From NCBI GenBank assembly GCA_016700095.1, contig CP065002.1, forward strand, positions 28,074 through 92,073: a DNA stretch of 64,000 nucleotides. Direction: 5' to 3'. Below, piece by piece: positions 49,578 through 63,999 of the stretch. This DNA is from Candidatus Woesebacteria bacterium (lineage in GTDB: Bacteria; Patescibacteriota; Microgenomatia; UBA8517). Within the stretch, counting starts at the first letter, position 1. Each line of letters opens with the position of its first letter. The notes under the pieces are model-generated. The model had not been told where the DNA came from and ran no database searches. It saw nothing but the letters and a program-made list of their open reading frames with translations. A program made the position numbers and the translations under genes.

Positions 49578-51053
49578 ATGGATCATGATGTAAATAGCAC
49601 CTCCGACCAAGAGGTAGAAACAAATGATGATTTAAGTAAACCATCAAATAATTCTAGTGTCCACACAGAAGACGACACAGTTATCAACAGTCCGGGCAAC
49701 AAACTTAAAATCTGGCACGAGATATTGGAAAGTATTAAAGTTTCAGTTTCCGGAGCTATCTTCTCAACCTGGTTTACCCAAACCCATTTATCGGAACTAA
49801 AAAATGTTGGAAGCAGATATTTAGCTGAGGTGGGATGTTCGTCTAGTTTTGTCAGAACCACACTTGAGGGGAGATATTTCGGCTTAATACAGGATGCTTT
49901 GAACAAAACTCTCGATAAAGAATGTGACGTGCTTTTTATAGTAAAACAACAATCAGCTTCACAAGATTTTTCTTCTGTTCCTCTTTTCCAAGAACCTGAA
50001 AAAAACGAGGAAGGAATATTATTCTTAATTTCAAAATCTAATCTAAGAAAGAACTTCACTTTTGATAATTACGCGGTTTCTTCTACAAATCAAATGGCGT
50101 GGGCAGCTGCAGACGCGGTTTCTAAAAATTTGGGAAATGCATATAATCCACTTTTCATCTGGGGTGGGGTAGGGGTGGGCAAAACACATCTAATGCACGC
50201 TGTCGGCCATTGTGCGTTAATCAAAAATTCAAGTTCAAAAATTCTCAGTTGTACGGGTGAAGATTTTACCAACGATATCGTAGAGGGAATTAGACACAAA
50301 AATACAAAAAATGTACGCAATAAATATCGAAAACTGGATGCCCTGTTGGTTGACGACATTCAATTCATTGCCGGCAAAGATACTGTTCAAGAAGAATTCT
50401 TTCATACTTTTAATTCGATTGTTTCCGTTGGGGGACAAATTATTATCACCTCGGACAGACCTCCAAGCGAGATCTCGAAACTGGAAGAACGCTTACGAAG
50501 CAGATTTGAAGCAGGGCTTATTGTAGATATCGGAAATCCCGATTTTGAATTAAGATGCGCAATTGTCCAAATAAAAGCTGCTGATAGGGGAATTAATATT
50601 CCCATGGACTTGATTCAATTAATTGCCGGCAATATTGATTCGGCGCGCGAAATCGAAGGATTTCTCACCAAATTATCATCCGAGGTGATACTTAATAAAA
50701 ACGAAATAAGCAAAAATCTAATTGAAACCATTTTGTCGAAAAAAGGCGTACTAAACGGTGATACTCAAATCAAAGCTCAACCGCAAGAAGTTGTCGCCGC
50801 CGTGTCAAAGTATTATACGCTTGGCAAAAGAAGTCTATTGGGCGCTTCACGAGCGCGACCTGTTGCCAGACCACGTCAAATACTCATGTATCTTTTACGG
50901 ATGGAGTTAGCGCTGCCGCTCGAAGAGGTTGGGCGACTTGTTGGAGGACGAGATCACACCACCGTTATACACGCTGTGGATAAAATAACCAAACTAGCTT
51001 CGCTTGATGTGCAAACACGACAGGACATTAGGGGGATAAAAAACATCCTTTGA
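49578..51053 (+). CDS. dnaA: Chromosomal replication initiator DnaA
   Basis: It has the N-terminal domain WHEILESIKVSVSGAIFSTWF, the AAA+ motif NPLFIWGGVGVGKTHLMHAVG and the C-terminal DNA-binding domain ...RPRQILMYLLRMELALPLEEVGRLVGGRDHTTVIHAVDKI. Confidence 0.9.
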   Translation: MDHDVNSTSDQEVETNDDLSKPSNNSSVHTEDDTVINSPGNKLKIWHEILESIKVSVSGAIFSTWFTQTHLSELKNVGSRYLAEVGCSSSFVRTTLEGRYFGLIQDALNKTLDKECDVLFIVKQQSASQDFSSVPLFQEPEKNEEGILFLISKSNLRKNFTFDNYAVSSTNQMAWAAADAVSKNLGNAYNPLFIWGGVGVGKTHLMHAVGHCALIKNSSSKILSCTGEDFTNDIVEGIRHKNTKNVRNKYRKLDALLVDDIQFIAGKDTVQEEFFHTFNSIVSVGGQIIITSDRPPSEISKLEERLRSRFEAGLIVDIGNPDFELRCAIVQIKAADRGINIPMDLIQLIAGNIDSAREIEGFLTKLSSEVILNKNEISKNLIETILSKKGVLNGDTQIKAQPQEVVAAVSKYYTLGKRSLLGASRARPVARPRQILMYLLRMELALPLEEVGRLVGGRDHTTVIHAVDKITKLASLDVQTRQDIRGIKNIL

Positions 51054-51287: not shown

Positions 51288-52400
51288 ATGAAACTACAGG
51301 TACTTCAAGAAGATCTGACGCGTGGATTAAATATTGCTGCTCGATTTGCAAGTCCCAGATCGCAATTACCAATACTAGGAAATATTTTGTTTAATGTTCA
51401 AAAAACAAAACTAACACTTTGTGCTACAAATCTTGAAACATCAGTATCTATTCCAATTGGAGCAAGTGTCAAAGAAATGGGTAATATAACGATTCCTGCA
51501 AGAGTAATAACGGATATTGTTGCAAATTTACCGAGAGGACAAATAAATTTGGAAGCCGCTAAAGAAAACCTGGTAGTTTCTTGCGAAAAATATACATCAA
51601 CTATATCGGGGACAAACGATGCCGATTTTCCAAGTGTTCCGACAGCCTTGGGAAAGGAGAAATCAAGTTTTCCAAAGGAATTGTTTACCGGCGCATTGTC
51701 TCAGGTGATTTTTGCGGCTAGCTCTGACGAAACGAGACCTGTTTTAACAGGTGTACTAATTATTTTTCAAAAGAATTCATTAGTGTTTGTTGCCACAGAC
51801 GGATTTAGACTTTCTCAGAAGTCGGTTGTTGCAACTGGAGTGGGGGATACTGACCAGGTAATTCTTCCTAAAAATACATTACTTGAACTGCTTAGATTAG
51901 CCAACGAGAGCTCGAGTATTGATATTGCATTTCCAAAAAACGAAAGTTTGGCACTTTTTGGACTAGGAGATATTGTTCTTTCTTCGAGAATTATTCAAGG
52001 TGAATTTCCAAATTTTTCAAAAATCATTCCCCAAACGACAAATATAAAAATTGATTTGGACAAAGAAGAGTTGGTTAGGTCGGTTAAACTGGCGAGTGTA
52101 TTAGCTCGTGACAGTGCTAATGCAATTACTTTCAAAATAGATAAGACGGGATTGGTTGCGACATCACAAAGCAGACAAGCCGGGAAGCAGGATATTCAAA
52201 TTGATGCACGAGTTGAATATTTAGAAGGCAATGATGATGTACTTGAAATAGCCTTTAATTATAAATTTATAGAAGATTTTCTGTCGTCTGTAAAAGGGGA
52301 TAGAGTCGTCGTAAAATTAACTTCAGCTAATGCACCGGGAGTATTTGAGGATCCGCAAGACAAAGATTATCTTCACCTTATCATGCCTGTGAAGTTGTAA
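51288..52400 (+). CDS. dnaN: DNA polymerase III beta sliding clamp
   Basis: It begins MKLQVLQEDLTRGLNIAARFAS... and has a three-domain beta-clamp architecture in 370 aa. Confidence 0.85.
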   Translation: MKLQVLQEDLTRGLNIAARFASPRSQLPILGNILFNVQKTKLTLCATNLETSVSIPIGASVKEMGNITIPARVITDIVANLPRGQINLEAAKENLVVSCEKYTSTISGTNDADFPSVPTALGKEKSSFPKELFTGALSQVIFAASSDETRPVLTGVLIIFQKNSLVFVATDGFRLSQKSVVATGVGDTDQVILPKNTLLELLRLANESSSIDIAFPKNESLALFGLGDIVLSSRIIQGEFPNFSKIIPQTTNIKIDLDKEELVRSVKLASVLARDSANAITFKIDKTGLVATSQSRQAGKQDIQIDARVEYLEGNDDVLEIAFNYKFIEDFLSSVKGDRVVVKLTSANAPGVFEDPQDKDYLHLIMPVKL

Positions 52401-52418: not shown

Positions 52419-53396
52419 TTACAGTTCTACACTGTATAGGTTGTCGTTATAATCGACCATATACATTATTCCGTTAATGTAAGCCGAAATTTCTCTTATG
52501 TAACCAATATTTTCTATCGGTTTTTGTTCTGACAAAGACATGTTTGAAACATCAAGGATGGCGTAAGTAGTATTAGGTAAATTTGTAAGTATAAATATTT
52601 GCGAATTATTAATCCAGATAGTCTTGTTACCTGGACGTATTTGCGAATTTCCCATTATGGCCATATCGTTAAGATCATATATCGTCAGATTGCTGGATGA
52701 TTGTATTGCAATCTTTGCTTTATCAGGAGTCAGAGAATATGTATTCCCTAATGACAACACAGTGTTTTCAAGTGTTAGCAAATCGAGAATGCTTACCTTG
52801 CTTGCATTGGGAGAATCATAATCTTCAAAGAGAACAAGTCGGTTTTTAACTATACAATCAACATCGCTTGCAGTTGTTTCTAGTAATGAGATTGGTGAGT
52901 TGCTATTAATTGGGAGTGAGTATAGAATCGACTTTTCCGTGTTTGGATTGTAGTTTCCGATAAAGTAAATTTTTCCTTCTTGTTCTGAAATTGTTGCTGA
53001 GACTATTGGACTGTATTTCGTAAGTTGGATTATGGATGTTAGATTTGTTGATGTATCTATTAATGTTAATGAACTTGCGTTGTTGTGTTCTTTTACGAGA
53101 ATATAACGACCGTCTTGTGAATATTTTTCAACTACTTTTTCAAATAATATGCTAGTTTCATTATTCGTAATGCGGACAAGCTTTCCGTTGTTTGTATTTA
53201 TGCCAATAAGTTGACCGGCAATATTGTTTAAATGAGTTAGCGATTTGTTTCCATCGATTATATCAAGTTTGTTTACAACTACACTTGAATTGTCGATGTC
53301 GATGTCAGCTGAATTATCGTTGAATAAAATATACAACAATATCCCCGTTGATAATACTGCTGCAACAATTAATAAATACTTTATTTTTTTAATCAT
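52419..53396 (-). CDS. Hypothetical membrane-anchored protein with beta-rich extracytoplasmic domain (last gene of T4SS-like operon)
   Basis: An N-terminal TM (YLLIVAAVLSTGILLYILF) is followed by N/S/T-rich beta-strand repeats. It overlaps the upstream gene by 4 nt. Confidence 0.4.
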   Translation of the reverse strand: MIKKIKYLLIVAAVLSTGILLYILFNDNSADIDIDNSSVVVNKLDIIDGNKSLTHLNNIAGQLIGINTNNGKLVRITNNETSILFEKVVEKYSQDGRYILVKEHNNASSLTLIDTSTNLTSIIQLTKYSPIVSATISEQEGKIYFIGNYNPNTEKSILYSLPINSNSPISLLETTASDVDCIVKNRLVLFEDYDSPNASKVSILDLLTLENTVLSLGNTYSLTPDKAKIAIQSSSNLTIYDLNDMAIMGNSQIRPGNKTIWINNSQIFILTNLPNTTYAILDVSNMSLSEQKPIENIGYIREISAYINGIMYMVDYNDNLYSVEL

Positions 53397-54754
53397 GGTA
53401 TAACACAGTTTGTCGAGTAATTAGGGCAGACGCCCAAACCGAATTTTTGTTCAAAGTCTGTTTGAGGGCAAATCGTTCCGTCTCCACCGGGAAAATTTAG
53501 TGAACCATTATTTATGGCAAAGTGTAAATGCTCCGCTGTTGAATTGCCGGTGTTGTCTGAGGTGGCGATGACTTCTCCTGCTTGAACAAAATCACCGACC
53601 TTAGAGTAAATATCGCACGTATGAGCATAATAGTAATTTCTTCCATCGTCACCTGCAAGAAACACGCCATTTCCTCCTGCTGCTGTTTGTAATGTTAAAT
53701 AAATTCGTCCACTGGTGTATGCAAGTAGTGGCAAATGTGCATCTCCAGGGTTGCCCTGTACCCCTATGTCAACAGCTAGATTACCGTCGTGGTGATAACA
53801 ATCGTAACCAAGTCTACCATATTCAGCCATTGGGAAGTAGTAGTTACCCGAGGCAATGACTCCGGTGGCACTTGGTCTTGTGTTAGGATTAGCTGCCGGA
53901 CCCAAACATTCATCGGGAGCATTACCAATTCTTACAGTTGCTGAGGCTTGTGATGATTCTCCTGTTAATCCTTCTGCTGTTGCTGTAATTGTAATTATAT
54001 CGGTCACCGCTGTGTCGTAGTAGCTGGTGCTGTCTGGAAATGCTTGACTATAAGTAAATACAAAAGGTGTCCCAGGGGAAATTTCCTGAGGTGGTGTAGG
54101 TAAGCCTGGATTAATTGGGGGACAGGAGGGAGGGGTTCCTTGTCGTTTTGAAACATAACATCGGTATTCGATGTTGATGTCTGTAAGAACCGATCTCTCT
54201 GCTATTATCGAGACGGTGTACTGAACAGTCCAAGGTAAATTCTCATTAGGTATATTTGTGATACTTGCTGTTTTACTAACTTCAATAAACGCTGAATCGA
54301 CAAGGAACGGATCTGATTGTCCACTCCACGGTGGTACAACCCATGCGCCGGAATTGATAATAAACAGAATTATCGATACGGCAATGGGGATAATTACAAA
54401 AACGATGATAATCGGCGACGCAAGGGCGACACCAACCGCCGCTAAAATACTTAATGTTATGGAAAACGCGTGTGCTGATGCCAGAGCCAATCCACCGAGT
54501 AGATCGCGTGCATCTTTACTGAATTTTTGCATAGCGTTAACCATGCGAGCGATTAATTCTCCGGCTATCTCAGCGGCAACAGCGGCGATCGCATTTCCTA
54601 CCCCGGGAGCTAAACTTCCCAAGGCTTGTCCAGCCGCTCTTACTGTTGCTTTGGTGGCTGCCTTGGTTACAACTTTTTTGGTGACTGTTTTGGCGGCGCT
54701 TCCGGCAATTTGTCCAGTAGTACTTGGTCTTTGATTTTCCTGATCTTTTGCCAT
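53393..54754 (-). CDS. Membrane-anchored M23 peptidase (cell-wall hydrolase of T4SS-like operon; Ala-rich N-terminus)
   Basis: It has an Ala/Gly-rich N-terminus and TM helices (IIIVFVIIPIAVSIILFIIN). The C-terminal domain carries YHHDGNLAVDIGV...YYYAHTCDIY...GNSTAEHLHFAIN (M23 HxxxD / HxH). Confidence 0.65.
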   Translation of the reverse strand: MAKDQENQRPSTTGQIAGSAAKTVTKKVVTKAATKATVRAAGQALGSLAPGVGNAIAAVAAEIAGELIARMVNAMQKFSKDARDLLGGLALASAHAFSITLSILAAVGVALASPIIIVFVIIPIAVSIILFIINSGAWVVPPWSGQSDPFLVDSAFIEVSKTASITNIPNENLPWTVQYTVSIIAERSVLTDINIEYRCYVSKRQGTPPSCPPINPGLPTPPQEISPGTPFVFTYSQAFPDSTSYYDTAVTDIITITATAEGLTGESSQASATVRIGNAPDECLGPAANPNTRPSATGVIASGNYYFPMAEYGRLGYDCYHHDGNLAVDIGVQGNPGDAHLPLLAYTSGRIYLTLQTAAGGNGVFLAGDDGRNYYYAHTCDIYSKVGDFVQAGEVIATSDNTGNSTAEHLHFAINNGSLNFPGGDGTICPQTDFEQKFGLGVCPNYSTNCVIP

Positions 54755-54758
54755 AATG

Positions 54759-56762
54759 TTATTTTATAATATTTGTACCGACATCTGTTTGCCTGATTGC
54801 ATTGATCGTACTTGGTGACGGTATCTGATTATTTTGTTTTATAACTGTATTTTTTTGTTTTTGCAAAATCTCTCTTGGATTAGTTGTGATTAAGCCGTGT
54901 TCTTCAGGTGATGCAACAATACGGATTGGAACATGGTGATTGCCGGCAAAAAATATTCCTTCTCCGATGTTTGCTCCAAGCAGTAACTGCCTCTCTCCCT
55001 GAGATAAATAGAACACATCACCAATGCGGTCGATTGCGGCAGGAGACTGCTTGAGGAGAATTCTAAGGGCACTGTTTGTAACAATAGCTTTACCAATATC
55101 TTGTGCCAAAAAATCCTCCACGTCTTGAGTGATTGTCGTTAATCCAAGATAGTACTTTCTCGCTCTTTTTACGATCGACCATAGGAATTGTGCACTGTCT
55201 TCGTACCTCATCATATGCCATGCTTCGTCGACAATTAGAATACGTTTTCTCATATCTCTTTTTACTTTGGTCCAAATAAAATCAAGAATAATAAACATGG
55301 CAATCGGTCTTAATTCGTCCCGTAATTCACGGACACCAAAAACCGTAAACGGGTTGTTGATTTCAATGTTGGTGTGTTGGTCAAAAATTCCAACATAACT
55401 TCCTTTAACAAATTTTTCGATACGCGCAGCCAGGTCGAGTGCGGTTTCGACTTCCATGCCGATTAACGCCTTGTAAAGATCTTCCATCAGCGGAGGTTCT
55501 TTCTTTTGAGTTTCTGGGTCTTGGGTGATTCCCTTGGCTTTGTAAGTTGCAACAAGAGCTCGGTCGAGCATGGCGTCTTGTTGGGCGTTTAAGCTTCCCA
55601 TAATAATTTTAAAGAGTGAGTGCAATGACAAAATCTTTAGGCCCAAATTATTTTCACCCTCCTCGTAAATCTGTGACAAATCAAATGGATTAATTCTTTG
55701 CGGTGAGCTGAAAGAGAAATCAATATACTGTCCATCAACAGCATCGGCGAGTACTTTGTATTCGGATTCGGGATCAACAGCGATGATTTCAACACCAAGC
55801 ATGAGTGATCGCACGGATTCCAATTTTACAAAATAGCTTTTTCCTGCTCCGGAAGTCGCAAACACTGTCATGTTGTGATTTTCCAAAGAGAATCTGTCAA
55901 AAATAATGAAAGAGTCATTCTGGGGATTAATACCATACAATATTCCGCTGTCACTGGTTAGTTCTGTGGACGTAAGAGGGAAAGTAGTAGCAAGGGAGGT
56001 AGTATCCATGTTTCTGGTGATATTTAACCTATCAAGTCCAAGAGGAGAAGTTGACAAAAATCCGTTGTTCATATCAAGTGTTGCATTTCTTGGAATAGCA
56101 AGCAGTGACTGAAGAGTGGATGCAACCTGTCTTGTTACGAAATTTAATTGTTCAATATCTGCTGCTCTAATTGTTATATAAAATCCAAATTCAAAAAAAT
56201 GTTCAACCCCTTTTACAAGAGACTCTTGTAACATCCGGGCGTCATCCAACTTTGCCTGTGTTGAAGGGTTGACAATTTTACCGCGTTCCAAATCGGTTAT
56301 GATTTCGGCTTCCATTTCGGCGATTTTGTGTCTGAAATCTTCAAGAATACCTTTTATTTCAACCGGATAGACAAAAAAGGCAATATCTAATGAAGCGTTA
56401 AAATTAATAATTTGCTCTAACCATCCAGGTGAAACATAGCGTGGGTAACCTGCAATAAATAGCGTGCGAAAATAGACATTGTTAATTCTAAGATGGTTAA
56501 AATCAACCTCTATTTCTTGAGGGGCAACCACATCGAGGACATTTGCATCCTTGTCGAGAATTTCGGATATCGGATCGCGGAACTTTGGTTTTACAAATTC
56601 GTCGCGAGTTATTCCTCCTTCTTTGTTTGATTTGGATGTTTTATCTTGGATTTGATTAACCAACTTCTGTTGCGGAGTTTTTCCGTCTGTTTCGGGAGTG
56701 GGATCAACAACATTGTGCACCTCCGTCTCTTTCTGAGTATTTTTTTTACCAAACAGTTTCAT
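54759..56762 (-). CDS. VirB4/TrbE/CagE-family T4SS ATPase (ATPase portion)
   Basis: It has NVYFRTLFIAGYPRYVSPGWL (the conjugative VirB4 GYPR region), the Walker A FATSGAGKSYF, DPESEY and the Walker B ILIVDEAWHMM. Confidence 0.75.
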   Translation of the reverse strand: MKLFGKKNTQKETEVHNVVDPTPETDGKTPQQKLVNQIQDKTSKSNKEGGITRDEFVKPKFRDPISEILDKDANVLDVVAPQEIEVDFNHLRINNVYFRTLFIAGYPRYVSPGWLEQIINFNASLDIAFFVYPVEIKGILEDFRHKIAEMEAEIITDLERGKIVNPSTQAKLDDARMLQESLVKGVEHFFEFGFYITIRAADIEQLNFVTRQVASTLQSLLAIPRNATLDMNNGFLSTSPLGLDRLNITRNMDTTSLATTFPLTSTELTSDSGILYGINPQNDSFIIFDRFSLENHNMTVFATSGAGKSYFVKLESVRSLMLGVEIIAVDPESEYKVLADAVDGQYIDFSFSSPQRINPFDLSQIYEEGENNLGLKILSLHSLFKIIMGSLNAQQDAMLDRALVATYKAKGITQDPETQKKEPPLMEDLYKALIGMEVETALDLAARIEKFVKGSYVGIFDQHTNIEINNPFTVFGVRELRDELRPIAMFIILDFIWTKVKRDMRKRILIVDEAWHMMRYEDSAQFLWSIVKRARKYYLGLTTITQDVEDFLAQDIGKAIVTNSALRILLKQSPAAIDRIGDVFYLSQGERQLLLGANIGEGIFFAGNHHVPIRIVASPEEHGLITTNPREILQKQKNTVIKQNNQIPSPSTINAIRQTDVGTNIIK

Positions 56763-56763
56763 A

Positions 56764-57426
56764 TCAGTTAAATATCCCCCTTTCTTTTATGGGCGGCTCG
56801 GGATTGTAAATGTTATAAACCAAATCGATAAGCTCATCTGTTTTAAGTTGCCTTAAATTTAAACCTAATCTCCTAGCCTGTCTTGCGATATGTTCACGCT
56901 TGGGGTAGAGAGCTATTTTAGCTTTCCTTACGACATAAGCTTTTGTATACGGGACACCGGGTTGTGTTTGTTTACTACCAGGTAAAGAAAACGATTTTGA
57001 AACACCAAGTTCGTATTGAGTAAACGGCAGTACAATATAAAACTTTTTACTTAAAACATTTTTCTTCTTTATTGAATCGCTCATGAACTTTTTGTAACCA
57101 CGCATAATTTCTGTTAGTTTGGGATTAGATATGCTTTTTTCAGCGTCGTCCAGCAAAATTAAGTAATTAGAAATGTCTTTTTGAAGACTTCTGACCACAA
57201 TTTGAATATGAAAAGTAAGAGAATTCAAAAGTCCCGCATAACCGGCAATTACAGCTTCCTGTTCGTTTTCGCTAAGTAGGCCGAAGTTAAGCGAGGTGGA
57301 TTCCAAAATAAGTGTTACGGCACCGTTTTTGTAAAGCACCAGGTCTTCAAAAATTTCGGCAATGGGCAAATGATTTTGTGTTGTTGTTGATAATGGACGA
57401 TCGGGAAAAAATAATGGTAATTTCAT
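56764..57426 (-). CDS. VirB4 N-terminal-domain-like protein (separate ORF; stop 1 nt before ATG of the ATPase ORF)
   Basis: IAEIFEDLVLYKNGAVTLILESTSLNFGLLSENEQEAVIAGYAGLLNSL resembles the N-terminal (CagE_TrbE_VirB-type) region normally fused to the VirB4 ATPase. The junction is TGA-T-ATG, so the two ORFs are in different frames. Confidence 0.4.
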   Translation of the reverse strand: MKLPLFFPDRPLSTTTQNHLPIAEIFEDLVLYKNGAVTLILESTSLNFGLLSENEQEAVIAGYAGLLNSLTFHIQIVVRSLQKDISNYLILLDDAEKSISNPKLTEIMRGYKKFMSDSIKKKNVLSKKFYIVLPFTQYELGVSKSFSLPGSKQTQPGVPYTKAYVVRKAKIALYPKREHIARQARRLGLNLRQLKTDELIDLVYNIYNPEPPIKERGIFN

Positions 57427-57427
57427 A

Positions 57428-58483
57428 TTAGTTGGTTAAATTGCTGTTTGTCGCCGTTATTGCTATTGGGTCGATTAGAGATCCGGTTACGTTTAGTTTT
57501 ACAGGATCAAACATTAACCCTTCCTTTTCTGTAATAATTTCGTATGTACCGCTTGGCAGTGGTGTTACAATGCCAAAATGTCCAAGCGTATTGCTTTTTA
57601 GAGCTCTTACCGGGCGATTGTCTTCATCTCGTATTTCCAGAATTGCCCCACTAATTATTTTTCCGGCACCATCCATCACTTGACCGACCAAGATGTTTGG
57701 CTGGGTTGGTGGAATTGGAGGAGCAGACTCCGAAGAGAAGACGGCTTGTTTTACGAAACTGTTTGCTTGGCTTGCAAGCGAACCGGTAACTGTAGTCGTA
57801 GCTTTTGCTACGTCGTTGTCACTTACCGTGATATTGACAGCATGGTCAATTAACGGCTGAGTTGCTTTTTGATTTATTGCGTTACTACTAACCGGTGTTG
57901 GTGTTGCAAGCGGGACTTTAATCGTATCTGTATTAGTGGGCATTACCGGTTGATTGGTGTTACCGAAATGCTCCGATATTTTAACTAAAAATTGTTTCTC
58001 TGTTGTTTCAAGTCCCGACAATGCTTTGGTTGCCTCCACTTGAATACCTACTGGCGCCATTGCAGACTCTGTGGGCTCGGAAGGTACTTTCTGCGACATT
58101 TGTTGTTGGATTTGAGCCGGAGTTTGGTTTTGTGCCAATGTTTCCATCATTTCGGCGTCGGAGGCAAAAAAGGAAAGCGGTTTTGTTTTTATCCATGTAA
58201 AAATAGTTGGTGAATAAATCGATTTAACAAATAATATTAACCACTTTTCAAGCGGTCTGTCCTCGAACGGGAAAAAAGCCAAAGCAATCCCAAAGAGGAA
58301 TGAAATTAGCATGAGTGGAAGTTTTATGAAGGTGAGTAAATTTGTCGAATACAGGAGCAGTGCAATCAGTGCACCCGCTGCTACTTGAAAAAATTGTTTT
58401 AAGGTCATGTCACCAACAAGCCTAAATTGATAGGAGGTAATTTCTTGCGGAATTGGATGCTGGACTTCGAATTCTACTGACAT
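57428..58483 (-). CDS. VirB3/PrgI-like two-TM protein with C-terminal transthyretin/carboxypeptidase-regulatory-like domain
   Basis: YQFRLVGDMTLKQFFQVAAGALIALLLY plus a second TM resembles the (G)(L/P)(T/S)(L/F)(R/K)Q motif of Gram-positive VirB3-like proteins. The C-terminus GQVMDGAGKIISGAILEIRDEDNRPVRALKSNTLGHFGIVTPLPSGTYEIITEKEGLMF is a CarboxypepD_reg-like beta-sandwich. Confidence 0.4.
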   Translation of the reverse strand: MSVEFEVQHPIPQEITSYQFRLVGDMTLKQFFQVAAGALIALLLYSTNLLTFIKLPLMLISFLFGIALAFFPFEDRPLEKWLILFVKSIYSPTIFTWIKTKPLSFFASDAEMMETLAQNQTPAQIQQQMSQKVPSEPTESAMAPVGIQVEATKALSGLETTEKQFLVKISEHFGNTNQPVMPTNTDTIKVPLATPTPVSSNAINQKATQPLIDHAVNITVSDNDVAKATTTVTGSLASQANSFVKQAVFSSESAPPIPPTQPNILVGQVMDGAGKIISGAILEIRDEDNRPVRALKSNTLGHFGIVTPLPSGTYEIITEKEGLMFDPVKLNVTGSLIDPIAITATNSNLTN

Positions 58484-58655: not shown

Positions 58656-59180
58656 ATGGTGTATATTTCAATCTTAATTGTAGTATTTGTTGTATTTTAT
58701 TTTGTGAAACGTGACTTTTTTTACGGAAACAACGCTCCGTATGTGCCATCCGACGCGGATGTGGTTGAAAGAGTAATGGAGATGGCTGAAGTTAAGAAGG
58801 GTGATGTTGTTTATGATCTAGGCGCAGGAGATGGTAGATTTGTTTTAGCTGCAGCCATGAAAGGTGCAAGCGCTGTGGGAGTAGAACTCAATTTACTAAG
58901 AAGCATATATGCTAGGGTTTGGTTTAGAATACTTAGAATCGACAAGACAGCTAAAATTATAAGGCAAGATATTTTTAAGACAGATTTATCGAAAGCAACA
59001 GTTGTAATTTGTTATTTGCTTCAGGAAACTAACGATGCTTTGCAAAAAAAGTTGGAAAAGGAATTAAAACCAGGCACCAAAGTGATTTCTATTGCTTTTA
59101 AGTTTGCGGGTTGGAAAGAAGTGAAGTTTGATGGAAGGGGAGTTGTTTACGGTCCAATTAGAATGTACGAAATTGAATGA
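58656..59180 (+). CDS. Small class I SAM-dependent methyltransferase with N-terminal TM helix
   Basis: VVYDLGAGDGRFVLAAAMKGASAVGVELN is SAM-binding motif I (D/E-x-G-x-G-x-G). It is 174 aa, on the opposite strand to the flanking T4SS genes. Confidence 0.5.
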   Translation: MVYISILIVVFVVFYFVKRDFFYGNNAPYVPSDADVVERVMEMAEVKKGDVVYDLGAGDGRFVLAAAMKGASAVGVELNLLRSIYARVWFRILRIDKTAKIIRQDIFKTDLSKATVVICYLLQETNDALQKKLEKELKPGTKVISIAFKFAGWKEVKFDGRGVVYGPIRMYEIE

Positions 59181-59224: not shown

Positions 59225-61165
59225 ATGAGTATAGAAGAAAATGACGGTGATCTTTCGATAATACGCGCTGCTGAGACGTTGGGGTATGATGAACGGGCAC
59301 AGCGCGAATTTCAACGATACGAAGAAACAATGAAACTCAGGGCTGAACAACGCCAAATTGCACCTGAAAGAGAAATGTTGGAAAAAGCAAGAACTGCGGA
59401 ACAGGTTACTTATGCTATGAGATTATTTTCGGATCAAACGGAGGCGGCGAATAATGATCATCCGGAGTTTTATGACAGATATGGCCAGTTAAATTTCTTT
59501 TTGACAGCGGAAGGAAAACTTAGATCATGGGAAGCGGGAACCAGAAAGAAGAGAGCTGAACTGGCGGCGCTTGGTTTTACTGATTTGACAGCGCACGAAA
59601 TAGTGCCTGACTTGCAAATTGATCAAGTACAGATACTTGATAGTATGAGTGATAAGCAGAAACAAGAAATCGAAGCAAGAAACCGACAAGCTCTGACACA
59701 TAACCAAAAAAACCAAGAGGAAAGAGCGATTATTGAGGAAAATCGAGATGGTGTTATTGACACACTAAGAAGAGAATGTCGCTTGTTTGCTGCACGTGCG
59801 AAACTCACTCGAGAAACAGCAAACTACCACAATGCAGGAGGCTCAATTACTGAAATTGCGAAAGGTTTTCTCGCCCCAGCTCCTTATCAGATTAATGCTG
59901 AAGATTTTGAGGCAATATTTACCGCTGGTCCGGGTTTGGTTTTGTCACCGGATAAAAGAAACGAATTTCGGAATAACCCCAATGCGCGCCATTTAGGCAA
60001 TGATGTTAGCATGGCGATTATGTTGTATGATCTGGTTGCCGCGTCAGAAAATAAAACCAAGATGTTGGACTATATACAATCACCTGGTTTTAAGCGAATA
60101 GTAGCAGGGGAGAAAGAGGGGGAAGTTCTTCGTGGCTTCACTAAAAGGTTTATAGGTAATCCCAGTAATTGGAAGGAAGAAAATAAAAAAGTAGAAAACG
60201 CAAACAATCCGTCTCAATCTCTTTATACAGGCGAAAGAACAAAAGAAGATCTCAAGATAGAAGCAAATGATAGAGGGTTGTTAACAGTCGCAGGGAATGT
60301 TTTTGCCCACAAAGAATCGACTAGAACAAGGCAAGTGGTCGACGATATTGTGTGTCAATTGGTAGGAGGAAACCAAACTGCACAATTAATAGCAAAAAAC
60401 TTATATCGGGTGTCGGGTGCAGCAGCTGCAGCAGGTGCTGAAATTTATAAAGATGGCAATAGATATTTACCGGAAGTGGAAGGATACCCGGCAGGTTCTG
60501 ATGACCTGGTTGCTCTAACACAATTTAAGGCTAAGCAAATAAAAGACCGCGAGAAAGGTAGTCCTTGTGGGGTAATTTATACATGTGGACTTTATCCAGA
60601 TCTTCTTGCTGATTTTTGGTCTTTTCAAACTGTTGAAGGAGCAAAAGGGAGTATAAAAGTGAAAAGGTCACTTCGTGAATATATGTGGGGTGGAGGAGAT
60701 GGTGTACACGACCTCGACGCCGGTCACTTATTGGGTGAAGTAGATTGGAAGAGTTTTCCTCCAGAATTATGGCAGGAACACAAACTTAGAATGTATTATG
60801 GTGGACGAGATAGAACCGGTTTGGCAGAGTTACTCAAGAGAGTCAGGTTTACCCCCGACGAATTGACTAATTATGAATTTTGGCAAACTCTAAATAAGGC
60901 GGTTGGAATTGTGGTACATGACTCACTGGTAACTGGGGGTAATTACCGAGACTGGGATGGTCGGATGGATCAATTGAGAACAGCTACTGCTAATATGGCA
61001 CTAAGGATAAAAGGACTTTTTGTATACGGTGTGAACACGAGACAAAACCAGTGGCTTAGAAGGGATCACATGGACCAGATTGATTCCAGAACTCGTGGTA
61101 TAGACTTAATGAATGAAGCTGTTAATGACGCAAAATTTCAATTTACACAATTTAACCCTAAGTAA
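59225..61165 (+). CDS. Hypothetical 646-aa soluble protein embedded in T4SS-like cluster (candidate cargo/effector)
   Basis: A long intact ORF with no recognisable motif and a visibly higher GC content than its neighbours. It is co-directional with the methyltransferase. Confidence 0.45.
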   Translation: MSIEENDGDLSIIRAAETLGYDERAQREFQRYEETMKLRAEQRQIAPEREMLEKARTAEQVTYAMRLFSDQTEAANNDHPEFYDRYGQLNFFLTAEGKLRSWEAGTRKKRAELAALGFTDLTAHEIVPDLQIDQVQILDSMSDKQKQEIEARNRQALTHNQKNQEERAIIEENRDGVIDTLRRECRLFAARAKLTRETANYHNAGGSITEIAKGFLAPAPYQINAEDFEAIFTAGPGLVLSPDKRNEFRNNPNARHLGNDVSMAIMLYDLVAASENKTKMLDYIQSPGFKRIVAGEKEGEVLRGFTKRFIGNPSNWKEENKKVENANNPSQSLYTGERTKEDLKIEANDRGLLTVAGNVFAHKESTRTRQVVDDIVCQLVGGNQTAQLIAKNLYRVSGAAAAAGAEIYKDGNRYLPEVEGYPAGSDDLVALTQFKAKQIKDREKGSPCGVIYTCGLYPDLLADFWSFQTVEGAKGSIKVKRSLREYMWGGGDGVHDLDAGHLLGEVDWKSFPPELWQEHKLRMYYGGRDRTGLAELLKRVRFTPDELTNYEFWQTLNKAVGIVVHDSLVTGGNYRDWDGRMDQLRTATANMALRIKGLFVYGVNTRQNQWLRRDHMDQIDSRTRGIDLMNEAVNDAKFQFTQFNPK

Positions 61166-61192: not shown

Positions 61193-62785
61193 TTAAATAC
61201 CCCATTTTTTAAGTTGCATCCAGTGTTGGACATCTAGCCATCTAGCACTTGTACCTCCAGGTGTTCCAGCCTTTCCTGCCTTTTTGGATACAAAACTATA
61301 AGCTCCAGTCTTGGCGCCTTCGCGAGAAGCAGCAACTCCAGCTGACAGTGCTCCTGAGGCAAACGCCAAACCTTCACCAATTCCGCGACCCATGTCATAA
61401 GGCCTGCCTGCTACCATACCTTTTACAATGTCTGCTGCTTTGGGTGCAAGAGCAATGATTGCTACGCTTGCTCCTAGCCAAATAAGATCGGTGTCCCCTG
61501 TACCTCCACCATTGAGAAATGGAGGTGTCCAAGCTCTTCCTTCAAGTCCGGGATCTAAAACATCAAATGGCCATAGATTATCCAATTGACCCAAGGTTGC
61601 GATATCAACTATTCGGGTAAACATATTAGTATACGCTGCTCTCAAAAATACAAATGCCAAAACATACATAAAACCAACTGTTGGGTAAACAGCAAGGAGT
61701 GAAGCTAGATTTTTTATCCACCCGGAAAAACCACTTCCGCCGATCGCGCCCAAAAGAATTTGAATCGGTCCAAAAATAATTGCAAACATAATTAAAACAA
61801 AAGTTTTTAAAAGCATCCAGGTTACTCTAAAGGCAAGAATAAGAATGACAATTGACATGATAATTGACACTATGGCTACAAGCAGGCCAATTGCCGATCC
61901 CTGTGAGGTAATTGCCATTACGATACCGGCGGGGTTTGAAACGAGTGTCCAGAAAAGTGCACCGGTGAAGAAAAGCCAGTATTTAAACATAACCATGAAT
62001 GCACTCTGGGCGTAAGTTAATTGTCCGAATAATTCTGACCAAGACTGTGTTGTACCACTAGCCACCACATTGGCCGATTGCAAAATTGCAGCAAGTAAAC
62101 CAATAACCACGTACATGAGGTCAATCATAAAGCCGGCAATGGCGTAAGAAAAAGTAATCAGTATTAATGTGGTAAACACCTTTGGTAGAGCCGACTGGAC
62201 GGTGATAACGGTTTGAGGAGAAATTTTAACACGGAACATAATCATGAAAGACATAATGATAATAATAAGAATTAGAAAGCTGTAGGAAACATTTCGTGTA
62301 GCTTGCCAAAGATTAAAAATGAGAGCACCACCATTGTCAAAACCAAAGCCTTGTGCGCTTGCCTCGGGAGTTAAATGCCACCTGTTAGCAATATTTGCAA
62401 AGTAACTAAGTGACGATACGGAGTGGATGTTAAGCGTAGCAACAGGTGAAGTGGTTTCAATTTGTCCGATGCCCGTCAGTTCTCGTGCTAATATCACTAT
62501 ACACTCCGCGGCATTTCCCTGAATACCAGCCATCACAATACAGGTGATAAAAGGGTGGTCAATCGAGTAGATTAATCCATAAATTACCCATTTAACCTGA
62601 GCGGCGGTATAGCGTTCACCGAAAAGTTCCGATTCGGTTCCGGATTGTACTGTGTTCACAAATTCGGGATATGTTTGTTTGTACCACTGTGCCTTAACAG
62701 GTTGAGCAGTCAAATGCATGAGAGGGAATGCAAAGATAATTAGAGAAAGGAAAACAAGCAAAGATTTATTGATAAATTTTCTCAT
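61193..62785 (-). CDS. VirB6/TrbL-like polytopic membrane protein
   Basis: A signal peptide and an ~130-aa extracytoplasmic segment are followed by 7 or more TM helices and a Gly/Ala-rich C-terminal tail, typical of VirB6/PrgH/TcpH-type T4SS channel proteins. Confidence 0.45.
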   Translation of the reverse strand: MRKFINKSLLVFLSLIIFAFPLMHLTAQPVKAQWYKQTYPEFVNTVQSGTESELFGERYTAAQVKWVIYGLIYSIDHPFITCIVMAGIQGNAAECIVILARELTGIGQIETTSPVATLNIHSVSSLSYFANIANRWHLTPEASAQGFGFDNGGALIFNLWQATRNVSYSFLILIIIIMSFMIMFRVKISPQTVITVQSALPKVFTTLILITFSYAIAGFMIDLMYVVIGLLAAILQSANVVASGTTQSWSELFGQLTYAQSAFMVMFKYWLFFTGALFWTLVSNPAGIVMAITSQGSAIGLLVAIVSIIMSIVILILAFRVTWMLLKTFVLIMFAIIFGPIQILLGAIGGSGFSGWIKNLASLLAVYPTVGFMYVLAFVFLRAAYTNMFTRIVDIATLGQLDNLWPFDVLDPGLEGRAWTPPFLNGGGTGDTDLIWLGASVAIIALAPKAADIVKGMVAGRPYDMGRGIGEGLAFASGALSAGVAASREGAKTGAYSFVSKKAGKAGTPGGTSARWLDVQHWMQLKKWGI

Positions 62786-63438: not shown

Positions 63439-63999
63439 TTATGGAATTCCGCATCTTGTTGCTGCGATTGTCCAGTTACTGCTGAAATTACATATTGCAT
63501 TTGAAGGTGGGTTATATGATCCACAAGCCAGTCTTACTGCCTCACGAATATTTCTTTCTGGATCGATGTAGTTTTCAACACACGCATCAAGTAAGGATTG
63601 ATTTGCAACCTCGCACCAGTTTAACGGGTGGGTCCCCGAGGGTAAATAATCAATCACAAATGACCCTGGGCAGCGAGGGGTAAACGTTGCTAGGGGATGG
63701 AGATTTATCTGGAAAAGACCGACGCTGTAGTCGGGTGAGACTCCCGTTAAGCACCCATAGTTAGTTCTTGTTGGATTACCTCCCGATTCTTGTGCGCAAA
63801 TCTGACTGGCGTTTTCGGCAGCAACTTGGTTGGGGAAGTAATTTAGCAAGTTGGTAACGCTGCACGGTCCGTTTTCAACGGGAGCGCAATTACCAGGTTG
63901 AGTTGGCGGTACAGGATCTCCCGATCCTGGAGGCATACCGTGTCTTAGATATAAAGTATTCATAACATAGGGTCTAAGTAAATCCTGCATGGACACCAT
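63439..63999 (-). CDS. Lysozyme-like (SLT/Rpf-type) cell-wall hydrolase domain protein; N-terminus may lie beyond the window end
   Basis: ICAQESGGNPTRTNYGCLTGVSPDYSVGLFQINL carries the catalytic E-S-G-G-N and GLxQ motifs of lytic transglycosylase/Rpf lysozyme-like domains. The reading frame is open to the window edge. Confidence 0.55.
   Translation of the reverse strand: MVSMQDLLRPYVMNTLYLRHGMPPGSGDPVPPTQPGNCAPVENGPCSVTNLLNYFPNQVAAENASQICAQESGGNPTRTNYGCLTGVSPDYSVGLFQINLHPLATFTPRCPGSFVIDYLPSGTHPLNWCEVANQSLLDACVENYIDPERNIREAVRLACGSYNPPSNAICNFSSNWTIAATRCGIP

Follow-up and report, generated by a model that had tools for sequence, protein, structure and literature searches.

Two adjoining genes beside the replication origin of a Candidatus Woesebacteria bacterium very probably encode a natural two-piece VirB4

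In a 64,000-nucleotide (nt) stretch of the chromosome of a Candidatus Woesebacteria bacterium (contig CP065002.1, positions 28,074 to 92,073; hereafter the window, to which all coordinates refer), a VirB4-type ATPase of a type IV secretion system (T4SS) appears in two pieces, and the question that this locus raises is whether the break is real. From the list of open reading frames (ORFs) and translations for the window, a 220-residue ORF with an ATG start (57426..56764, minus strand; positions on this strand run from high to low where read 5' to 3') ends a single nucleotide before the ATG of a 667-residue ATPase ORF (56762..54759, minus strand). The junction reads ATA TTT AAC TGA T ATG AAA CTG, with TGA at 56766-56764, the spacer T at 56763 and ATG at 56762-56760 (56760..56766 for the whole TGA-T-ATG), and places the ATPase in the +1 frame relative to the 220-residue ORF. 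The original prediction had described this arrangement exactly and offered a real split VirB4, a sequencing or assembly frameshift, a programmed frameshift and pseudogenisation as its possible origins. We assign a probability of roughly 0.93 to the first of these, namely that the two genes encode a natural, evolutionarily conserved two-piece VirB4 of a chromosomal T4SS, rebuilt from two separate proteins of one operon.

The two ORFs match complementary parts of VirB4. The 667-residue protein scores 363.5 bits against the NCBIfam model NF045971 (conju_CD1110; cut-off 325 bits, E = 2.3e-108) over model positions 173 to 734 of 752, covers positions 292 to 890 of the 894 in VirB4_plasma, and matches P-loop_TraG (PF19044, E = 6.5e-29), AAA_10 and DUF87 in Pfam. 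Its Walker A motif (ATSGAGKS, residues 302-309, 55836..55859, minus strand) and Walker B motif (ILIVDE, residues 508-513, 55224..55241, minus strand) are both intact. The 220-residue protein aligns with VirB4_plasma positions 102 to 278 (E = 2.7e-8) and with positions 1 to 123 of the CD1110-type model (E = 7.6e-4), and the two ORFs cover complementary parts of both full-length models in colinear order. This is the outcome anticipated in the original prediction, which had likened the shorter ORF to the N-terminal domain normally fused to VirB4 and had proposed aligning both ORFs to the full-length protein. A canonical VirB4 carries the N-terminal subdomain and the ATPase in one chain; here, the N-terminal subdomain lies on a separate ORF, so the two ORFs together constitute a split variant of the VirB4 family. 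The longer protein, which lacks the first subdomain, supplies the RecA-like ATPase together with what remains of the N-terminal region; its residues 1 to ≈78 form a K/D/T/E-rich linker that varies among relatives and is followed by a conserved APQEIEVDF...YPRYV region. In the ATPase frame, a stop codon lies eight codons before the ATG, so no longer version of the 667-residue ORF is concealed there, and an N-terminus of the form MKL..LF.KK recurs across related loci; this recurrent MK..LF.KK start supports independent initiation. A PF12666 PrgI gene directly upstream of the pair and an M23 hydrolase gene directly downstream provide the gene context of a VirB4.

We refer to the 220-residue protein (56764..57426, minus strand) as TrsD-like and regard it as the VirB4 N-terminal subdomain in the form of a separate soluble protein. 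As with TrsD/TraD of the staphylococcal plasmid pSK41, it is soluble, falls in the range of ≈200 to 230 residues and is encoded between the genes for a VirB3-like protein and a VirB4-type ATPase. It matches the NCBIfam TrsD/TraD model NF041427 with 29.8 bits (E = 4.9e-7), against a curated cut-off of 200 bits, and thus appears to be homologous to TrsD/TraD but outside the narrow staphylococcal/Firmicutes subfamily, hence the qualified name. An alignment of 38 sequences compared with pSK41 TrsD in hhalign gives a weak match (probability 57%, E = 1.1e-4) that nonetheless runs end to end, over 178 aligned columns.

The alternative that survives best, although we consider it very unlikely, is that this ORF encodes an unrelated accessory protein upstream of a naturally short VirB4. 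It draws on the lack of any Pfam match for the ORF and three homologues in hmmscan (PF26593 included, even at an E of 10), on a PDB sequence search with the 220-residue family profile that returned chance-level matches only, and on the weak fold matches of the isolated domain. Such a protein should show no homology to VirB4 N-terminal regions, as the original prediction had pointed out, but this is not what we find. Beyond the colinear matches to the N-termini of the two NCBIfam VirB4 models, the 220-residue protein shares 47% identity with the first 200 residues of fused VirB4 proteins encoded in a syntenic position. The reference protein of this kind, P0270 (787 residues), aligns through residues 6-199 with the TrsD-like protein (47% identity) and through residues 185-771 with the window ATPase (64% identity), and in two independent assemblies it is encoded in the order PrgI, fused VirB4, M23 peptidase, 332-residue protein, dnaN and dnaA. 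Furthermore, precomputed matches to PF26593 ("TraC-like") are carried by many orthologues of the 220-residue protein, by P0270 (weakly) and by the 198-residue protein of a related split locus, L010, and a structural model of the fused protein aligns to TrwK over 649 residues. Structure supports the 220-residue protein as the VirB4 N-terminus less strongly than sequence does.

The split itself is conserved. A search with the 220-residue protein retrieved 1064 homologues, the best 120 of which are all 217 to 246 residues long (58-100% identity) and come from many independent samples; the closest relatives (82%, 79%, 70% identity and onward) are all stand-alone proteins of ≈220 residues from independent samples and assemblers. 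Likewise, the best 120 homologues of the ATPase span 579 to 741 residues (68-100% identity), and none is long enough to be a fusion. When 1.84 billion representatives were searched with a profile, 2794 relatives of the 220-residue family emerged, and 149 of the 150 listed representatives at 50% identity are not fused to an ATPase, with P0270 the only one that runs directly into it. Both window proteins are 100% identical to deposited Candidatus Woesebacteria proteins from a 1.27-Mb contig, annotated there as two separate genes. The same split, which the original prediction had suggested looking for in related genomes, is present in six further loci, with differing junctions. Five of these, from reference genomes (L001-L005), comprise four Patescibacteria/Woesebacteria-type loci and one Chloroflexota metagenome-assembled genome (32% identity); they keep the order PrgI-like protein, ≈222-residue protein and ATPase of ≈620 to 660 residues, and the sixth (L010) keeps this order too. 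L003 (CAZDKH010000008.1), which encodes a protein 56% identical to that in the window, is deposited as "uncultured Gammaproteobacteria bacterium," probably through a binning or labelling error.

The junctions of these six loci are all different. As called, the genes are separated by 21, 12 or 2 nt or overlap by 1, 4 or 32 nt; the TrsD-like genes of L001-L005 end in TAG, TAA, TAA, TAA and TAG, and the relative frames of the two genes in these loci are 0, 0, +1, +2 and +2. In L001 and L002, the genes lie in the same frame with a stop codon and 21 or 12 nt between them, and in L010 they share an ATGA overlap. With spacers, stop codons and all three frames differing from locus to locus, no single indel and no conserved slippery site explains the split.

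This variation bears first on recoding near AGG GGG ATA TTT AAC TGA, by a programmed +1 ribosomal frameshift or by stop bypass, which would yield some fused VirB4 besides the two separate proteins. The ATPase frame is open for eight codons upstream of its ATG, such that a shift within this interval would create a continuous protein, and a purine-rich, Shine-Dalgarno-like stretch lies just upstream. Across related loci, however, there is no conserved recoding signal, slippery site or frame relationship (spacers range from -32 to +21 nt in L001-L005 alone); the last sense codon, AAC, is unable to re-pair in the +1 frame (ACU); and a matching one-nucleotide junction, TAA-T-ATG, joins the unrelated PrgI-like and TrsD-like genes of the same operon. 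We therefore hold recoding at this site to be less likely still than an unrelated accessory protein.

A sequencing or assembly frameshift, in which a 1- to 2-nt error has placed a stop codon in one fused VirB4 gene, is an explanation to which we give almost no credence. It is invited by two ORFs one base apart in different frames and by the existence of fused versions in a related lineage. Opposed to it are the closest relatives, all stand-alone at ≈220 residues with ATPases of ≈640 to 670 residues, and the stop codons, spacers and frames that change from one related locus to the next. In addition, each protein has a boundary of its own: the ATPase has the conserved N-terminus described above, and the 220-residue protein has a conserved C-terminal end, YNPEPP[IV]K[ED]..[IL]F, directly before its stop codon. 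Fused forms also differ from split ones by far more than one nucleotide: in a DNA alignment of a fused gene (L006, 5001-7364) with a split pair (L010, 3408-5755), the fused gene lacks ≈29 nt covering the stop/start junction. Pseudogenisation, or decay of a once-fused virB4, is just as improbable, for although canonical systems have one uninterrupted gene where a stop codon intervenes here, neither ORF is truncated, both show strong conservation (58-86% identity in numerous genomes), the Walker motifs are intact, the ATPase exceeds the curated CD1110 VirB4 cut-off and a homologous TrsD gene is reported to be essential in Candidatus Southlakia epibionticum (PMC12102498).

Conserved protein sizes combined with varied junctions cannot be reconciled with an error of sequencing or assembly, with a conserved programmed frameshift site or with the decay of a pseudogene, and these options of the original prediction can be set aside. 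Its remaining option, a genuine split, is upheld by colinear profile matches, by syntenic fused orthologues and by the conservation of the split among relatives.

Fused relatives nevertheless occur, and they place the split in an evolutionary context. Using P0270 as the query brought up several dozen fused clusters, 783 to 897 residues in length, with Candidatus Amesbacteria among their sources, and 42 proteins of our comparison set possess the N-terminal domain. Among split relatives, P0415 is the closest to P0270; it is 88% identical to it in the ATPase part and is accompanied by the separate 198-residue "TraC-like" gene, with an ATGA overlap. A neighbour-joining tree built on the ATPase core intersperses fused clades among split ones, with at least four separate fused groups and a Fitch minimum of 10 changes; this tree is rough and without support values, and a few of its "split" labels probably denote truncated proteins, which makes the Fitch count only indicative. 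The alignment used for comparison was restricted to fused sequences; a mixed MAFFT alignment of fused, N-terminal domain-only and ATPase-only sequences was abandoned because the N-terminal fragments were misplaced, giving 15 to 20% identity instead of 47%. The interleaving of fused and split clades, taken with the ≈29-nt junction indel, suggests that Microgenomatia can dispense with the covalent link, which is labile over evolutionary time in this group. A further group of Patescibacteria VirB4 ATPases (P0428, P0429, P0432, P0438, P0439, P0480, P0482, P0491 and P0507) is 1158 to 1215 residues long and contains intein/homing-endonuclease domains (PF14528 and PF14890); from their domain content, we identify these as intein-interrupted VirB4 proteins.

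The pair sits within one tightly packed operon of five genes, which encode, in order, a PrgI/VirB3-like protein, the TrsD-like protein, the ATPase, an M23 peptidase and a 325-residue membrane protein. The junction between the PrgI-like and TrsD-like genes is TAA-T-ATG, with the same one-nucleotide spacer as TGA-T-ATG; the ATPase and M23 genes are joined by TAA-CATT-ATG, and the M23 gene and the 325-residue gene overlap by 4 nt. TGA-T-ATG is not peculiar among the junctions of this operon. A scan for promoters and terminators between 52.0 and 59.3 kb found 19 sites versus 20.7 expected and 3 versus 6, respectively, no better than shuffled sequence, so the operon boundaries are set by gene spacing only. 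The purine-rich, Shine-Dalgarno-like stretch GAAAGGGGG (56776..56784, minus strand) lies within the 3' end of the TrsD-like ORF, 13 nt 5' of the ATPase ATG, and the TGA-T-ATG junction is, judging from this arrangement, probably a site of translational coupling.

The first gene of the operon (57428..58483, minus strand) encodes a PrgI/VirB3-like membrane protein (Pfam PF12666 PrgI, E = 5.8e-8, 33.6 bits, cut-off 27) with two predicted transmembrane (TM) segments within residues 32-75. At 351 residues, this protein is unusually long, with a CarboxypepD_reg-like (Ig-like) domain C-terminal to the two TM segments (Pfam E = 2e-5, below the cut-off); L010 carries a gene with PrgI and CarboxypepD_reg domains at the equivalent position. 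The fourth gene (53393..54754, minus strand), which starts 4 nt past the ATPase stop, encodes a membrane-anchored M23 peptidoglycan peptidase of 453 residues (Peptidase_M23, E = 2.4e-14, with predicted TM segments) that is probably the cell-wall-opening, VirB1-analogous component; the fused loci L006 and L007 and a Pontibacillus plasmid (L009) likewise have an M23 gene at this point. The last gene (52419..53396, minus strand) converges on dnaN and specifies the 325-residue protein, which carries a single, N-terminal TM segment and matches no family significantly in a Pfam scan; a 332-residue gene located between M23 and dnaN in L006 and L007 is syntenic with it.

From these features, we propose that both ORFs are translated as separate polypeptides from one operon, with the one-nucleotide TGA-T-ATG junction and GAAAGGGGG coupling their translation in a manner that would favor balanced synthesis. 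The TrsD-like protein and the ATPase would then most likely associate noncovalently into a complete VirB4, as the fused orthologues imply. By analogy with the VirB3-VirB4 structure of R388, the rebuilt VirB4 would dock on the PrgI/VirB3-like membrane protein and power the T4SS, for which the M23 peptidase would open a passage through the cell wall. If Candidatus Southlakia epibionticum is a guide, it may be epibiotic growth, not conjugation, that requires this T4SS. Two genes each with their own start and stop, part-wise homology to VirB4, colinearity, a conserved split and existing fused orthologues are what the sequence data establish.

Elsewhere in the Patescibacteria, TrsD-like proteins take a longer form. 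In other lineages (P0244-P0390), they bear Q/N/P/S/T-rich, disordered tails of 100 to 500 residues whose last residues form a short conserved peptide, LPP[IL][AP]EI in 29 of 150 representatives and PF[VI]VEEL in 24. The short Woesebacteria form may possibly end in the same kind of motif, PP[IV]xE, without the tail (window 56764-56800), as its sequence hints. The tail-end peptide also resembles a segment of the ATPase itself, VAPQEIEVDF. The idea that LPPIAEI is the first strand of the ATPase relocated to the other gene was rejected, as the downstream ATPase in locus L011 keeps its own IAPEAIEVDF. The conserved tail-end peptide may be a docking peptide.

A bolder proposal, which we think doubtful, is that the detachable first subdomain of VirB4 is functional rather than neutral. 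The TrsD-like protein would then be an adaptor that, through its variable disordered tail and conserved C-terminal peptide (of PP[IV]xE type in Woesebacteria and, where 100- to 500-residue tails occur elsewhere, a terminal LPPIAEI or PFVVEEL), controls the time and place at which the VirB4 hexamer of the essential Patescibacteria T4SS docks on PrgI/VirB3. Were this true, repeated fusion and fission in Microgenomatia would mark lineages that gave up or regained docking control.

Beyond the operon lie dnaN (51288-52400, plus strand; TIGR00663) and dnaA (49578-51053, plus strand; TIGR00362), both above cut-off, and, beyond these, genes for rnpA, yidC and a KH/R3H (Jag-like) protein; with this set next door, the T4SS operon adjoins the replication origin region of the Candidatus Woesebacteria chromosome. 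No relaxase or VirD4 family was matched among the ORFs scanned between ≈38 and 64 kb, several of which have no family match at all, and no coupling protein or topoisomerase was found among the neighboring ORFs scanned against Pfam and NCBIfam. A nearby 530-residue protein (61193-62785, minus strand) has six or more hydrophobic segments and matches nothing in Pfam or NCBIfam; it is a candidate for a highly divergent VirB6-like channel protein, a class that is described in the literature as hard to detect in Microgenomatia. At the window edge, a 186-residue ORF (63439-63999, minus strand) includes the sequence QESGGNP...GLFQIN, similar to catalytic motifs found in soluble lytic transglycosylases; it has no Pfam match at E = 0.001 and, on the strength of this motif, is possibly a VirB1-like enzyme. 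Two genes are divergent from the T4SS operon: one encodes a membrane-anchored methyltransferase of 174 residues (58656-59180, plus strand), the best match of which is the archaeal-type protein-lysine N-methyltransferase NF041081 (E = 1e-26, below cut-off), and the other a 646-residue protein (59225-61165, plus strand) with no Pfam or NCBIfam match.

For annotation, these results mean that the two genes should be kept, as a TrsD-like VirB4 N-terminal-domain protein and a VirB4 ATPase, with no merging, frameshift flag or pseudogene call. The locus is a further instance of the origin-adjacent Patescibacteria T4SS, which epibiotic growth reportedly requires in the sole cultivated model, and leaves current understanding unchanged: a split of this kind has been documented before, in the TrsD/TrsE pair of pGO1/pSK41 and, as a general trait, in the T4SS loci of the Patescibacteria (PMC12102498). 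What is added is small, namely the fused/split lability in Microgenomatia via a junction indel and the conserved C-terminal peptides on TrsD-like tails. Split and fused forms linked by ATPases that are 88% identical constitute a natural experiment, in which the covalent link is dispensable and a domain boundary is marked that can serve in expressing or modelling VirB4.

Finally, we compare the window pair with known systems. In canonical single-chain VirB4 proteins (TrwK of R388 and the CD1110/PrgJ/TcpF type), the first ≈200-residue subdomain is part of the chain, whereas in the window it is a separate polypeptide, with short flexible tails on both sides of the break. The closest plasmid parallel is the TrsD/TraD and TrsE/TraE pair of pGO1/pSK41 (MPF_FATA, pGO1 subclass). 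On pSK41 from Staphylococcus, the order is a TrsC-like VirB3 homologue, TrsD (227 residues), a DUF87/VirB4 ATPase (672 residues), a membrane protein and a CHAP hydrolase, which the window matches in order and nearly in sizes. VirB4 is broken at the same point in both: window ATPase residues 65-624 align to residues 26-626 of pSK41 TraE/TrsE (25% identity, E = 2e-45). The two systems are nonetheless very distant, as reflected in this ATPase identity and in the TrsD score of 29.8 bits, and unlike pSK41, the window locus is chromosomal, near dnaA/dnaN, and employs an M23 rather than a CHAP hydrolase. Using the 220-residue protein as a tblastn query gave matches in 434 plasmid records, mostly from Bacillus, and both of the two inspected are split. 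That of Pontibacillus sp. ALD_SL1 (NZ_CP062975) encodes a PrgI-like protein, a 274-residue protein (31% identity to the window protein), a CD1110-type VirB4 of 621 residues and then an M23 peptidase, and Terribacillus pDMT04 (NZ_CP077640) encodes PrgI, a 300-residue "TraC family protein," a 697-residue VirB4 ATPase and then another T4SS protein. These Bacillaceae systems differ from the window in being plasmid-borne, in their longer TrsD-like proteins (274-300 residues) and in having overlapping genes instead of a one-nucleotide spacer.

The window corresponds most directly to the chromosomal T4SS of the Patescibacteria described by Quinonero-Coronel et al. (2025; PMC12102498), who relate it to MPF_FATA and count 2,272 Patescibacteria homologues of TrsD, of which 1,664 adjoin virB4. 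The same study places the T4SS cluster close to dnaA/dnaN in Microgenomatia, lists the TrsD homologue as essential in Candidatus Southlakia epibionticum ML1 and is the source for the remote homology of TrsD to the VirB4 N-terminus; it makes no mention of TrsD-VirB4 fusions or inteins, and the name TrsD is absent from the main text of Guglielmini et al. (2014; PMC4027160). In its Patescibacterium host, the window shares with this system, including that of strain ML1, a TrsD homologue adjoining virB4, a PrgI/VirB3 homologue, a peptidase gene 3' of virB4 and proximity to dnaA/dnaN. We find no substantive difference from the published description, of which the two-piece VirB4 of this Candidatus Woesebacteria bacterium is one instance.

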